The notes beneath the pieces are model-generated. The model was not told the DNA's origin, searched no databases, and saw only the letters and a list, made by a program, of their open reading frames with translations. 64,000 nucleotides of DNA. It comes from Acidobacteriota bacterium (GTDB taxonomy: Bacteria > Acidobacteriota > Blastocatellia > UBA7656). Positions 35,912-48,490 of this stretch are shown here, one piece after another. The translations under genes were made by a program, and so were the position numbers. The DNA lies in NCBI GenBank assembly GCA_016201275.1, contig JACQDB010000114.1:32111-96110 (forward strand). The letters run 5' to 3'. Position 1 is the first letter of the stretch. The number at the start of each line of letters is the position of its first letter.

Positions 35912-38900
35912 ATGAACAGCTTACAAGACCTGATAAACCTGCTTACAGACGCCATCAAACAAGGCGGCGGCAATCTGACCCTGCCGGTCAACAATCTGCC
36001 GGAATCCACCACGCTGGTCGGCTATTTTCAGTTGGACACGCTGACCATCAATAATGCCAAGCTCTCTTCTACAGCTTCCGAGGTCACGGTCGTTGGCACG
36101 ACCAGCATCTCGACTTTGAACCTCACGAATGTGCAGGCAACCTTGACCGGGCAGGTGGTCAATCAGGCCACGCTGTTGCAATTGCAGGTCTATTCATTGG
36201 GCGCGAATTGGAACCTGACCACCAGTTTCCCCAATCTGCCGGTGAGCGAAGATTTCAGCAGCAGCAAAGGCACATACTTTCTAAAAAATTCTTACTTTGG
36301 CGAACTGGTTTTATCGAGTCCGGCGTTTACCGCTTCGACTTTCGACGATACGAATTCAAACTACATCACCGGCTTGAACTTTACCGCTGGCGCAGCAGTC
36401 ACCGGCCCTTTTCAACAAATCGCTCACCTGATTTCATCGGTCAAACTCCTAGATATTTATGGCGGCATCACCATGCAGAAAACCGACCCGCCGCTCTTTG
36501 ATCTGCGCGCCGATTTGCCGGGGTTTAATTTCAATCTGGGGCAAATCAGCATGACCGATGTGCATTTGACCATGACCACAGACCCACCCGCCGACGATGG
36601 CGAGGTCTGGACTTCCTCGCTTGGCATCGCCGGAACGATCTCCGTAGGCACGACTGCGCCCATCGCCATGACAATTTCTTCGGCCTTGCAGAACACCGGC
36701 ATATGGGTGTTTACCGGCGTGCCGGTTGGCAAAAGCACACAACTGGCCAATGGTCTTGCAGACCTCTCGGCGTTAATCAGCGGCAGCGCATCGGACTTGC
36801 AAATCCCCACGGTAGGCAAAGTCTTCTCGCTGTTTTATCTGTCAAAAGTCAGCGTAATGTTGTCGGCAACCGACAGCAGCGTGCAATCCATCTTCGTGTC
36901 TGTGACTTCGACAGACCCTTGGGTGTTGCCATTGCCCGGTTTCACCATCAACCAAATCTCTACGGGATGGACGATCTTAAACCCGCTCGTTAGTACCAAA
37001 CGCTCGATCAGCGGTTATGTCAGCGGCATCTTCGTGTTCGGTGAAGAGCAGGTAGGCTTGCAGGTCACTGCACTGGTGCCAAATTTTATTCTCACGGCAT
37101 CACTGGTAACCGTGACCAACACCGATGACGACGCGACCGCGCTGATGACTACCGACGACCCGCCCGAAGGCATACACCTGCGCGATGTGTTGACGACCTT
37201 GACCGGCAGCGATGGCGGCATACCCGATTTCATCGTCACTGAATTCGATTTGATGCTGGACCCGAATAATAATTCCTATTCGCTGGCGACGGCGATTTAT
37301 GAAAACTGGACATTGCCGGTCAAGTTGGGAAGAACGACACTGACGTTCGAGCGCATGACGTTTTCGATTGCCTACAATCAAACGTCGCTGTCGGGAAAGA
37401 TCGCTTCCTATTTCAATATTCTCAGCACCGATTTCATGGTCTCCGCCGAAAAACCTGCGGGCGACAACGGCTGGATTTTTTCCGGCGAAATGTTGAGCGG
37501 ACAACAACTGACTTTGCAAACTCTGGCGACCGGATTCCTGCCCGAAGATTGGAACGTCACGTTGCCCAAGCCGCTCGACACCTTGGCGCTGACGACGCTT
37601 TCGGCTTCGTTCAATACCAAAGACAACACCTATGCGCTGGCCGCCGGGTTCACCTGGCTGCTGGATGATCTGGTTCCCAATTACACCTTTGAAATTGACG
37701 CCAACTTCAGCCTGCAATCCATCTGCACGATGGTCAACAATGTCGCCACCTATTCTTATAATGGCTCGGTGAGCGGCGTGTTCAAAGTCAATTCATTGAC
37801 CGTCACCGTCAGCTATCAATTCCAATCCAACAACAGCACGCTGTCGTTCTCGATTAATTTCCGTGGCACCACTTTGAGTTGTTCCTATTCGACCAAGACC
37901 GTCGCCGGGCAAACTCAAAAAGTTCTCACGGTCAGCATAGGCAATTTGAACGTCGGCGAAATGATCGAATATCTGGTCAACCTCGCAGACCCCAGTTCCA
38001 ATTTCAAACTCAGTTCGCCTTGGGATGTCCTCAACGACATCTCCATGAAAAATTTGTCACTGGAAATTAATCTGACGACCAATGACATCAGCATCGCTTA
38101 CACGCCGACCAGTCCGCTCGATTTGATTATCATCAAACTCAGCTTCATCAAATTGACCTATCGCAAGACCGCCGGACAAGGCTCTGTGAACATCGAACTG
38201 GGCGGCGATTTCCTCGGCCAGGAATACACCTCTGCCGATCCTTTGAAGTGGGATATGTTGAACGACCAGCCCCCTGCGACCCCCGGCGCGGGAGCCGCGT
38301 TGCTCGATATGGAATACCTAGGCATAGGCCAGCACATCGCCCTCGACACCACAAATTTGAACAACGTCACGCAAGTCATCAACGCGCTCGAAGCCATGTT
38401 GCAACCGGTTGATGACCCGTCGAAAAACCCTTTGACGCAATTGCAGGGCTTGTCCTTCAGCCAGAACAGCAACTGGCTTATTGGCACACGCTTCACCGTG
38501 ATGGGTACGGTAACCATAGCGGTGATTTTCAACGACCCGCAGATTTACGGTTTGCTGATTGCGCTGGGCGGCGAAAAGGCCAAGAGCTTCGCCGGATTGC
38601 AATTTGAAATTCTCTACAAGAAAGTCACAGACACCATAGGCGTTTATCACATCGAGTTGAAACTGCCAGATGCCATGCGCCACTTGGAATTCGGCGAAGT
38701 GTCCGTGACCCTGCCCATCATCGTGTTGGACATCTACACCAACGGCAATTTCAAAGTGGATTTCGGCTTCCCTTGGAACGTCGACTTCTCGCGTTCCTTC
38801 TCCGTGCAGGTCTTTCCCTTCGTCGGCTACGGTGGGTTTTATTTCGCTTATCTGAATGGCGACACGTCAACGAGCGTGCCGAAAATCACCAACGGCAATT

Positions 38901-48490: not shown

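Follow-up and report, generated by a model that had tools for sequence, protein, structure and literature searches.

A single reading frame in the window, by which we mean the whole 64,000-nucleotide stretch of Acidobacteriota DNA that was analyzed, encodes a giant LysM protein, here termed C. Our analysis shows that C is real and intact and belongs to a large bacterial family of ~4000-amino-acid (aa) proteins that has spread horizontally. C is the last gene of an operon with the order A-A-B-X-C, which we could match to no described system and which comprises the following genes:

28131..29366, + strand: A1, 411 aa, a paralogue of A2, whose BLAST family occurs in 55 loci
29461..30762, + strand: A2, 433 aa, identical to P0171 (HY231_19245, 433 aa)
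31018..34815, + strand: B, 1265 aa, the obligate partner of C, identical to P0002 (HY231_19250)
34886..35779, + strand: X, a predicted 297-aa EEP (DNase-I-like endonuclease/exonuclease/phosphatase) enzyme (PF03372, NCBIfam MnuA)
35912..48490 including the stop codon, + strand: C, the giant LysM protein, identified by its ORF, Pfam, its HMMER family, and collinear homologues

Intactness and distribution of the giant gene C

The frame of C opens with ATG and comprises 4192 codons with zero internal stops, as the original prediction of one continuous frame had proposed. Base composition is even throughout the ORF, and no DNA-level repeats were found inside it, which suggests that the repeats of the protein are old and that repeat collapse during assembly is unlikely. 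Two independent assemblies, L003 (JGI) and L004 (Logan), align collinearly with C over aa 1-2983 at 83% identity, and a third locus, L002, shares 57% identity with C over the ~2840 aa present there; P0015, the full-length product of L002, aligns to C at 60%. Frame breaks were absent from collinear homologues at 83%, 57%, and 30-40% identity to C. The sequence comes from a metagenome-assembled genome, and in two plasmids the C homologue consists of two separate ORFs, both of which would be compatible with C being an assembly chimera, several genes read through, or a decaying pseudogene. However, the uninterrupted frame, the even composition, the absence of DNA repeats, and collinearity both with the independent assemblies and with over 100 full-length homologues that match C in length and domain order leave such an origin with a negligible probability. 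The chimera that had been raised as a concern at the outset, along with repeat collapse, was rejected on the basis of the collinear assemblies and the lack of DNA-level repeats.

A word-indexed search with aa 1-1430 of C returned one distant 1426-aa protein, which gave C the appearance of an orphan, a status overturned by an exhaustive HMMER search with aa 1-1200 that identified 1365 cluster representatives, 980 of them at E<=1e-30. These relatives are mostly 3600-4500 aa long, are conserved along their whole length, and carry the generic database name 'LysM peptidoglycan-binding domain-containing protein'. The huge size that had been considered unusual is thus ordinary for this family, which has at least 1365 cluster representatives and a normal length of about 4000 aa. 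In a genome scan, C relatives occurred in 231 species genomes from more than 10 phyla and also on plasmids, with carriers that include cultured Pseudomonas, Streptomyces, Sorangium, Chitinophaga, Cellulomonas, and Janthinobacterium. Intact copies are present in the culturable strains Pseudomonas sp. GM50, P. citri, Streptomyces sp. DSM 15324, Chitinophaga fulva, Janthinobacterium violaceinigrum, and Sorangium So ce176, and some carriers are genetically tractable. Soil saprophytes or micropredators account for many of the hosts (Herpetosiphonaceae, Sorangium, Chitinophaga, Lysobacterales). The distribution of the operon is patchy and reflects horizontal transfer, and the operon adjoins integrases, IS elements, and conjugative elements. 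No C relative was found in 50,697 phage records or in a scan of viral contigs, and a phage or tailocin origin was rejected on this absence.

LysM arrays and conserved domains of C

The 4192 residues of C are arranged into the following regions:

35912..39331, aa 1-1140, + strand: all-beta N-terminal module and family signature (AF2 mean pLDDT 76.7; 1365 relatives)
38609..39316, aa 900-1135, + strand: most conserved stretch and candidate membrane-inserting sheet, with six amphipathic strands of 17-23 residues
40220-41929, aa 1437-2006, + strand: LysM array 1, 8 units, containing a conserved insert of ~100 aa (aa 1857-1957)
41930..43795, aa 2007-2628, + strand: central conserved non-LysM domain, 622 aa (column identity averages 54% across 6 members drawn from different phyla)
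43796-45427, aa 2629-3172, + strand: LysM array 2, 10 units
45428..46282, aa 3173-3457, + strand: conserved mixed alpha/beta domain between arrays 2 and 3 (AF2 model m49a0efc2d3e0, residues 1-285)
46283-46900, aa 3458-3663, + strand: LysM array 3, 4 diverged units, of which the HMM detects 3
46901..48487, aa 3664-4192, + strand: C-terminal conserved domain, comprising beta-sandwiches and a long helical hairpin (AF2)

The Pfam LysM profile PF01476 matched whole C significantly (55.9 bits against a cut-off of 20.9; E=4.1e-15). An iterative HMM built from the protein's own repeats detected 19 units at i-E<0.01, compared with 0.06 units per sequence in composition-preserving shuffles and 0 in the reversed sequence. 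We place the LysM count at 19-22, with the 3 units beyond those of the HMM being weak or recognized by eye. When the units were searched one by one, 7 of 22 matched PF01476 at E<=1. A joint profile of all 22 matched exclusively LysM chains in the PDB, led by Ecp6 (1.9e-14, profile positions 2-50 of 56), and also aligned over the full-length LysM domains of a cell-wall endopeptidase-related protein and of YkuD. The AlphaFold model of array 3 (aa 3458-3663), the most diverged array, contains four consecutive beta-alpha-alpha-beta modules (block-mean pLDDT ~72-97, mostly near 90), which is the 45-55-residue fold of LysM. Across the family, LysM arrays occupy the same three positions, and all 11 full-length members tested match PF01476, the best at 2.4e-76. 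These results support the interpretation that the repeats of C are true LysM relatives, and it is reasonable to infer from the LysM domain family that their ligand would be peptidoglycan or chitin.

The original prediction of ~20 LysM-like repeats in two arrays was accurate in the number of units and fell short in the number of arrays, which is three. Its first array was ended too early, at ~41460, and its second, placed at ~43790-46870, merges arrays 2 and 3 across the conserved 285-aa non-LysM domain that separates them. Its repeat-free ends correspond to the N-terminal ~1436 aa and the C-terminal 529 aa, and the central 622-aa domain had not been singled out.

Approximately 2700 of the 4192 residues, or about two thirds of the protein, are conserved non-LysM sequence, and the composition of C is rich in T/S/N/Q and poor in K/R. 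Searches of C in Pfam, NCBIfam, PHROGs, and PADLOC gave no match beyond LysM, and PDB sequence and profile searches of C and of an N-terminal profile returned LysM only. The AF2 model of the N-terminal module consists almost entirely of strands (pTM 0.46) and has no real match in the PDB by Foldseek (TM<0.2). Alternating hydrophobicity in C peaks at aa 900-1130, where AF2 also shows long hairpins. The resemblance of the N-terminal module to barrels is one of sheet geometry only, with 5-12% identity and low TM-scores. The amphipathic module is retained in the monoderms Streptomyces, Cellulomonas, Paenibacillus, and Lysinibacillus, and is thus not a classical outer-membrane protein. The central-domain profile has no PDB relative at E<=10, and the domain at aa 3173-3457 holds residues that are invariant across homologues. 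For the C-terminal domain (AF2 pLDDT 80.2, pTM 0.67), Foldseek against the PDB gave only generic similarity to Ig-like adhesins (TM<0.25); its 529 aa are conserved across phyla rather than polymorphic.

The A-A-B-X-C operon

The A-B-X-C order recurs in dozens of loci across phyla, and the conserved operon spans ~20 kb. A1 was listed as an ORF that opens at TTG 27951, and the conserved start is the Met at 28131; the protein shares 46.5% identity with A2 and 93% with its L003 counterpart, L003_427. A2 has 97 homologues, every one named hypothetical, and no relative in the PDB. In other loci, the A domain lies at the C-terminus of larger proteins (590-1650 aa) that also contain fn3 or Laminin_G_3 domains. 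No match to A was found in Pfam, NCBIfam, PHROGs, or PADLOC. B, whose family has a typical length of ~1200 aa, lies upstream of C in 53 of the 55 informative loci, defined as those in which 7 kb or more is available upstream. B likewise had no match in Pfam, NCBIfam, PHROGs, PADLOC, or the PDB, including by profile search, and hhalign detected no relatedness between B and C.

This synteny bears on the original prediction of very high-avidity binding, taken to mean that C is a stand-alone LysM wall binder whose neighbors are irrelevant. The 19-22 LysM modules are really there, as such a binder would need. However, C closes a conserved operon in which three partner families precede it, B accompanies it at nearly every informative locus, the gene order is conserved across phyla, and most of the protein is conserved non-LysM sequence, so that a stand-alone role now appears very unlikely. 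The first interpretation as a whole held for the LysM relationship, the single gene, and the lack of a signal peptide (see below), and did not hold for the oddity of size or the stand-alone role.

Based on its sequence, X is a member of the EEP superfamily with a nuclease fold and an intact set of predicted catalytic residues. It matches PF03372 at 29.9 bits (cut-off 24.5; E=5.8e-7) and the NCBIfam membrane-nuclease family MnuA at 3.5e-13, and its top NCBIfam matches are extracellular or membrane nucleases (MnuA, ExeM/NucH); PHROGs and PADLOC gave no match. Residues N9, E49, H141, D178, N180, D230, D287, and H288 are 100% conserved among 23 homologues from the operon slot. This slot holds an EEP protein in 15 of the 55 loci, a metallo-beta-lactamase-like (MBL) protein in 12, and an HNH protein in 7, which are three unrelated nuclease-capable folds, and the remaining 21 have no X that is recognizable by BLAST clustering. 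The EEP and MBL folds also cover phosphatases and lipid phosphodiesterases. X frequently occurs as 2-3 tandem paralogues, and it is the fastest-diverging component, with 68% identity between the window and L003 compared with 83% for C, 84% for B, and 88-93% for A. No immunity-like gene lies alongside the EEP and MBL forms of the operon, and in the window no small gene follows X or C.

The first 50 aa of C reach a maximum of 0.52 in a 19-residue Kyte-Doolittle window and contain no Sec-type N-terminus, in agreement with the earlier claim that C lacks a signal peptide. Among homologues, a Sec-type N-terminus was found in 0 of 80 C, 0 of 66 B, and 0 of 38 A proteins. Transporter genes are absent within and adjoining the operon, and the flanks of homologous loci contain no recurring secretion or lysis genes. 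The window genes around the operon are housekeeping and chemotaxis genes, with no defence island. A downstream thaumatin-like gene was rejected as part of the system, because it is not conserved beside homologues. In Aequorivita, a collagen-repeat gene follows C.

Candidate functions and comparison with known systems

Our best guess, which we hold tentatively, is that the operon encodes a non-classically released, cell-wall-binding, membrane-inserting, nuclease-carrying complex. The products of A, B, X, and C would assemble into a complex that acts extracellularly and reaches other cells independently of Sec, on the assumption of either cell lysis or an export route not yet recognized. C would anchor the complex through its three LysM arrays to an exposed wall of glycan, which could be Gram-positive peptidoglycan or fungal chitin, and the amphipathic long-strand sheet at aa ~900-1135 would enter the membrane. 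X would be the catalytic payload, as a nuclease or phosphodiesterase, A an exchangeable target-binding module that is fused to fn3 or LamG elsewhere, and B an obligate carrier or assembly partner. The whole would operate in the manner of a large, multi-subunit nuclease bacteriocin or Tc-type toxin, with parts unrelated to those of either.

Several observations are consistent with an extracellular complex. The collinear homologues and 1365 relatives indicate a real gene and family, and the A-B-X-C order is conserved, with B rarely missing. The exchangeable X slot, with conserved EEP catalytic residues, tandem copies, and fast divergence, fits a payload, and the LysM units, the fn3/Laminin_G_3 fusions, the Aequorivita collagen-repeat gene, and the T/S/N/Q-rich, K/R-poor composition of C all hint at a role outside the cell. 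The amphipathic module combines a hydrophobicity peak with long AF2 hairpins, and absence from phage records and viral contigs argues that the complex is not part of a phage. However, the lack of Sec-type N-termini and of recurrent secretion or lysis genes in the flanks makes the route out of the cell a pure assumption. An active nuclease made in the cytoplasm would also need another restraint in the EEP and MBL forms, which have no immunity-like gene, and 21 of 55 loci have no recognized X. In addition, the barrel likeness is geometric only, the pTM of the N-terminal model is low, and the folds of X include phosphatases and lipid phosphodiesterases. It is possible, if doubtful, that A-B-X-C is an undescribed, widespread toxin-delivery or wall-penetrating machine, in which the ~20 LysM modules of a ~4000-aa protein would track or span a thick glycan wall, a new beta-sheet module would breach the membrane, and an exchangeable EEP, MBL, or HNH nuclease would enter Gram-positive bacteria or fungi by way of no known secretion system.

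The main rival to the extracellular complex is an intracellular conflict or anti-phage defence system, in which A, B, and C would form a cytoplasmic sensor or scaffold and X would be an abortive-infection nuclease triggered by infection; the LysM arrays might sense muropeptides or be structural. Cytoplasmic LysM proteins are known, such as E. coli Kbp/YgaU and phage P2 gpX. Signal peptides are absent throughout the family, a single slot that accommodates EEP, MBL, and HNH nuclease folds, unrelated to one another, is a typical trait of defence effectors, X lacks an immunity gene, and the patchy, plasmid-borne distribution beside integrases, IS elements, and conjugative elements is also consistent with defence. 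However, no component matches a PADLOC model, and none of the usual sensor domains, such as an NTPase or helicase, occurs. The fusions of fn3/Laminin_G_3 to A and the ~20 LysM units would be unusual in cytoplasmic machinery, the neighbors in the window form no defence island, and tandem X paralogues look more like an effector array. On balance, we consider a defence role unlikely.

We regard as similarly improbable a surface or matrix scaffold without translocation, in which C would be a giant wall- or chitin-binding adhesin that places X and its partners on the producer or its prey, where they would serve eDNA or nutrient scavenging, biofilm remodelling, or predation. The LysM arrays, the extracellular and membrane nucleases that best match X in NCBIfam, the saprophytic or micropredatory habits of many hosts, and the weak Ig-like adhesin likeness of the C-terminal model suit this role. 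Nevertheless, export poses the same problem, the strongly conserved amphipathic beta module and the obligate 1200-aa partner B are left unexplained, and the Pfam matches include no sortase, S-layer-homology, T1SS, or T9SS sorting signals.

The operon is present in no fewer than 231 species genomes belonging to over 10 phyla. Pfam nevertheless contains no family, DUFs included, for A, B, or two thirds of C, and neither these two partners nor the LysM-free portions of C have a relative in Pfam, NCBIfam, PHROGs, PADLOC, or the PDB. A search of open-access literature on LysM with giant proteins, toxins, or defence returned no account of the operon. If the operon encodes a delivery system, it would represent a new mechanism of interbacterial or bacterial-fungal antagonism and the first role of long LysM arrays as a machine part rather than an anchor. 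If it instead serves in defence, it would rank among the largest such systems described and would be the first to have LysM at its core. Its function is directly testable, with intact copies available in culturable strains.

Among known systems, Tc (ABC) toxins are likewise very large multi-subunit proteins that lack signal peptides, spread horizontally, and carry an enzyme payload, and the related locus L006 adjoins a TcB/TcC-like fusion. In contrast, the payload here is a separate gene, whereas that of Tc toxins is the hypervariable C-terminus of TcC, and the folds are unrelated. Pfam searches of A, B, X, C, and 11 family members found no VRP1, neuraminidase-like, TcA-TcB-binding, SpvB, TcdB-mid, or RHS domain; Tc-toxin membership was ruled out by the absence of these defining domains, with the TcB/TcC-like gene of L006 being an unrelated neighbor. 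Nuclease bacteriocins (colicin E, pyocin S) and polymorphic toxins also combine target binding, membrane crossing, and a nuclease of exchangeable type, HNH included. However, those systems place a variable toxin at the C-terminus of a single polypeptide and encode immunity in a neighboring gene, whereas here the end of C is conserved, the nuclease is a separate upstream gene, and the EEP and MBL forms have no evident immunity gene. With a conserved C-terminal 529 aa and no small gene after X or C, the operon falls outside this class.

The N-terminal module differs from beta-barrel pore formers and outer-membrane beta-barrels in its 5-12% identity, low TM-scores, lack of a signal peptide, and presence in monoderms, and an outer-membrane beta-barrel protein was ruled out by the latter two. 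A phage tail-, eCIS-, or T6SS-like injection apparatus was rejected because PHROGs gave LysM-type matches for C alone and none for A, B, or X, and phage relatives are absent. A giant T1SS adhesin or RTX-MARTX protein was rejected because C has no RTX or Ig-like Pfam match and no transporter genes lie beside the operon. Anti-phage systems with swappable nucleases share with this operon a single slot for unrelated nuclease folds, mobility, patchiness, and cytoplasmic synthesis. Unlike them, the operon has no NTPase or sensor domains, with LysM, fn3, and LamG instead, and A1, A2, B, X, and C match 0 families at E<=0.1 in PADLOC-DB v2, which covers systems described up to 2023.

Known multi-LysM proteins have 1-6 modules, are secreted by Sec, and span a few hundred residues. 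C resembles the glycan binders among them (the fungal effector Ecp6, bacterial autolysin anchors such as AcmA/LytE, and YkuD) in that its repeat profile aligns to the LysM domains of Ecp6 and YkuD and its tandem modules suggest multivalent binding to GlcNAc-containing polymers. In contrast to these proteins, C has no signal peptide, contains ~20 modules in three fixed arrays within 2700 aa of conserved sequence without a recognized fold, and is accompanied by obligate operon partners.

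The giant reading frame and its LysM modules

C, the giant LysM protein, is encoded by a single open reading frame (35912-48490, + strand), which starts with ATG and runs for 4192 codons with no internal stop, as originally predicted. Its base composition is even along its length, and no DNA-level repeats, tandem or dispersed, were found within it. The Pfam LysM profile PF01476 matched the whole protein at 55.9 bits (E=4.1e-15; cut-off 20.9), which bears out the earlier claim of LysM-like repeats. A repeat HMM, seeded with the LysM consensus and then retrained on C itself, detected 19 units at i-E<0.01; composition-preserving shuffles yielded 0.06 units each and the reversed sequence yielded 0. 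Three more units are weak or were seen by eye, e.g., YTSRNGDTVGLIAGYF at aa 1705. LysM identity was checked in three independent ways, since the HMM was self-trained. When scanned alone, 7 of the 22 units reached PF01476 at E<=1. A profile of the 22 units matched only LysM-containing chains in the PDB, with alignments of approximately full domain length (Ecp6, 1.9e-14; the cell-wall endopeptidase-related protein 4uz2, 7e-11; and YkuD). AlphaFold2 modelled aa 3458-3663, which contain the four units that diverge most, as a run of four beta-alpha-alpha-beta modules (block-mean pLDDT ~72-97). Taken together, these results show that the repeats are LysM family members. They occupy three arrays rather than the two first described, with corrected boundaries:

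aa 1437-2006 (nt 40220-41929), + strand: LysM array 1, 8 units
aa 2629-3172 (nt 43796-45427), + strand: LysM array 2, 10 units
aa 3458-3663 (nt 46283-46900), + strand: LysM array 3, 4 units

The most conserved stretch of C, aa ~900-1135, comprises six strands of 17-23 residues each. Hydrophobic and polar residues alternate far more strongly here than anywhere else in the protein, and hydrophobicity is also at its highest, which suggests a candidate membrane-inserting sheet. No signal-peptide-like hydrophobic stretch was found at the N-terminus of C, in agreement with the original prediction, and no C family member examined has a signal peptide. Given this absence and the retention of the aa ~900-1135 module in monoderm bacteria, a classical outer-membrane protein is ruled out. 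Conservation is also strong across the central domain (aa 2007-2628), and no relative of it was found in the PDB. The predicted structure of the C-terminal 1020 aa (pLDDT 80.2, pTM 0.67) contains a mixed alpha/beta domain, array 3, and beta-sandwiches with a long helical hairpin, for which Foldseek returned generic Ig-like adhesin similarity only; this C-terminus is conserved in the family, not polymorphic. The N-terminal module of C exists outside the giant architecture too: at another locus (L001, 6803-14742), its aa ~95-664 are matched at 25% identity by P0001, a protein of 1426 aa that stands alone and whose gene is followed by one for a 1212-aa Laminin_G_3 protein.

The C family and its genomic setting

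Searched by word index, the N-terminal 1430 aa of C returned one distant protein and none of the relatives of ~4000 aa recovered by exhaustive HMMER, so the orphan status which that search alone implied is wrong. HMMER with aa 1-1200 gave 1365 cluster representatives (980 at E<=1e-30), most of them 3600-4500 aa long; a size initially described as rare is thus usual here. Named relatives, e.g., from Pedobacter, Aequorivita antarctica, Chloroflexia and Acidobacteriota, bear one name, 'LysM peptidoglycan-binding domain-containing protein'. Eleven full-length members from different phyla are collinear from end to end (30-60% identity), all 11 match PF01476 (best 2.4e-76), and the three arrays sit at constant positions across the family. 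Two independent assemblies (L003 from JGI and L004 from Logan) are collinear with C at 83% identity over aa 1-2983, and L002 is 57% identical over the gene portion it contains, which excludes an assembly chimera for practical purposes. HY231_19250, from an Acidobacteria MAG, has exactly the same sequence as the neighbouring 1265-aa protein B (100% identity). We give an artefact of any kind almost no chance.

The surroundings in the window include the following features:

12739-20966, - strand: complete chemotaxis operon (CheB, CheA-CheW-receiver hybrid kinase, MCP, CheW, CheR with TPR tail, a second CheW and a single-domain response regulator)
21304-24141, - strand: 944-aa protein, OmpR-type winged-helix domain fused to nSTAND1 NTPase and HEAT repeats
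48972-49784, - strand: member of the thaumatin family (PF00314, E=1e-6), transcribed towards the 3' end of the C gene
53571-62450, - strand: rpoC (1406 aa) and unusually long rpoB (1515 aa)

The rpoC and rpoB genes, together with the chemotaxis operon, confirm a chromosomal context. The 944-aa protein is a regulator or conflict protein of the STAND type, and nothing obvious links it to the operon of C. Thaumatin-like proteins, which bind beta-1,3-glucan, are uncommon in bacteria; the thaumatin-family gene is not conserved beside C homologues.

When one genome per species was scanned with a pattern, C relatives turned up in 231 genomes, from phyla that include Acidobacteriota, Bacteroidota, Planctomycetota, Chloroflexota, Actinomycetota, Pseudomonadota, Cyanobacteriota, Bacillota, Gemmatimonadota, Armatimonadota and Myxococcota. 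Cultured carriers include Pseudomonas sp. GM50, P. citri, Streptomyces sp. DSM 15324, Sorangium So ce176, Chitinophaga fulva, Cellulomonas phragmiteti, Janthinobacterium and Duganella. The gene also occurs on nine plasmids, among them Tistrella pTM1, one from Nostoc carneum, and pBRH02, the conjugative plasmid of the fungal endosymbiont Mycetohabitans rhizoxinica; no relatives were found in phage records and viral contigs. On pBRH02 (L092, 4769-15968; 1114 + 2614 aa) and pTM1 (L093, 14033-26061; 2521 + 1487 aa), C is annotated as two consecutive ORFs; the split may be natural, the result of a frameshift, or a sign of decay.

The operon and its exchangeable nuclease-fold slot

Four genes on the same strand precede C, with intergenic gaps of 70-255 nt:

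28131-29366, + strand: A1, paralogue of A2
29461-30762, + strand: A2, paralogue of A1
31018-34815, + strand: B
34886-35779, + strand: X, 297 aa, directly before C

The ~1.4 kb upstream (26700-28130) has no long ORF and no Rfam match, and its best sigma-70-like site is at 27746-27773; a 99-aa ORF at 27130-27429 is cupin-like by eye only.

The A-B-X-C order recurs in unrelated genomic contexts. Among 55 informative loci, each with at least 7 kb of sequence upstream of C, BLAST could identify A at 34. These results show an operon of four genes that is intact and under selection. The LysM modules are real, as a stand-alone wall binder would require, but C is the last gene of an operon and follows B in 53 of the 55 loci, and we regard that reading as very improbable. 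Neither A nor B matched Pfam, NCBIfam, PHROGs, PADLOC or the PDB, and no relatedness between B and C was detectable. At many other loci, the A domain forms the C-terminal end of a 590-1650-aa protein with fn3 or Laminin_G_3 domains.

Other arrangements were also seen. Pairs of small beta-rich proteins (130-190 aa, two families, no Pfam match, not in the window) recur upstream of A at ~15 loci in all (e.g., L035 2002-2881 and L046 1424-2531). In a single case (L006, 1-13555), A and B homologues adjoin a divergently transcribed 2538-aa TcB/TcC-like fusion (SpvB, TcdB mid, RHS) with a small LysM protein (198 aa) upstream; the contig ends before C. In Microcystis (L008-L010), the giant has 5535 aa and there is no recognisable A, with an upstream 1795-aa protein bearing a GH81 C-terminal-like segment (E=2e-8) instead.

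The slot before C holds one of three unrelated families: a DNase-I-like endonuclease/exonuclease/phosphatase (EEP; PF03372) at 15 loci, the window included, a metallo-beta-lactamase-like protein at 12, and an HNH protein with a ~290-aa partner at 7. Gammaproteobacterial loci have a weakly EEP-like gene between A and B instead. The EEP catalytic set is complete, with N9, E49, H141, D178, N180, D230, D287 and H288 100% conserved in 23 sequences, and the X of the window is a member of this superfamily. Copies of X often number 2-3 in tandem. Between the window and L003, X is 68% identical, less than C (83%), B (84%) and A (88-93%).

A proposed mechanism and known systems

The only functions recognisable in the operon, as predicted from sequence, are glycan-wall binding by LysM, an exchangeable nuclease-fold enzyme, and lectin- or Ig-like extensions on A in relatives. 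We tentatively propose that A-B-X-C forms a complex that acts outside the producing cell. The arrays of C would dock it where peptidoglycan or chitin is exposed, the amphipathic beta module would engage a membrane, X would be the payload, A would confer target specificity, and B would serve as carrier or assembly factor. Export would occur by lysis or an unrecognised route, as it does for Tc toxins and tailocins, and is the weakest step of the proposal because no lysis or export genes recur near the operon loci. The main rival, which we consider unlikely, is that A-B-X-C works in the cytoplasm as a defence system whose nuclease effector can be swapped; it accounts for the missing signal peptides and immunity genes, but fits poorly with the fn3, LamG and LysM content, the lack of an NTPase or sensor domain in the components, and an empty PADLOC result. 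A surface scaffold that holds the nuclease without translocating it seems similarly unlikely.

The operon as a whole was also compared with known systems. A-B-X-C lacks the defining features of Tc toxins, polymorphic toxins or nuclease bacteriocins, phage-tail-like injectors, outer-membrane barrels, RTX or T1SS giants, and PADLOC defence systems. Open-access full text yielded no paper on the system, and the term LysM is absent from the papers that came up there on giant bacterial genes. We therefore rate A-B-X-C as outside known kinds within that literature, with its sequences already deposited under a generic name. A widespread ~20-kb operon without family annotation would surprise a specialist, and this one is directly testable in cultured strains.
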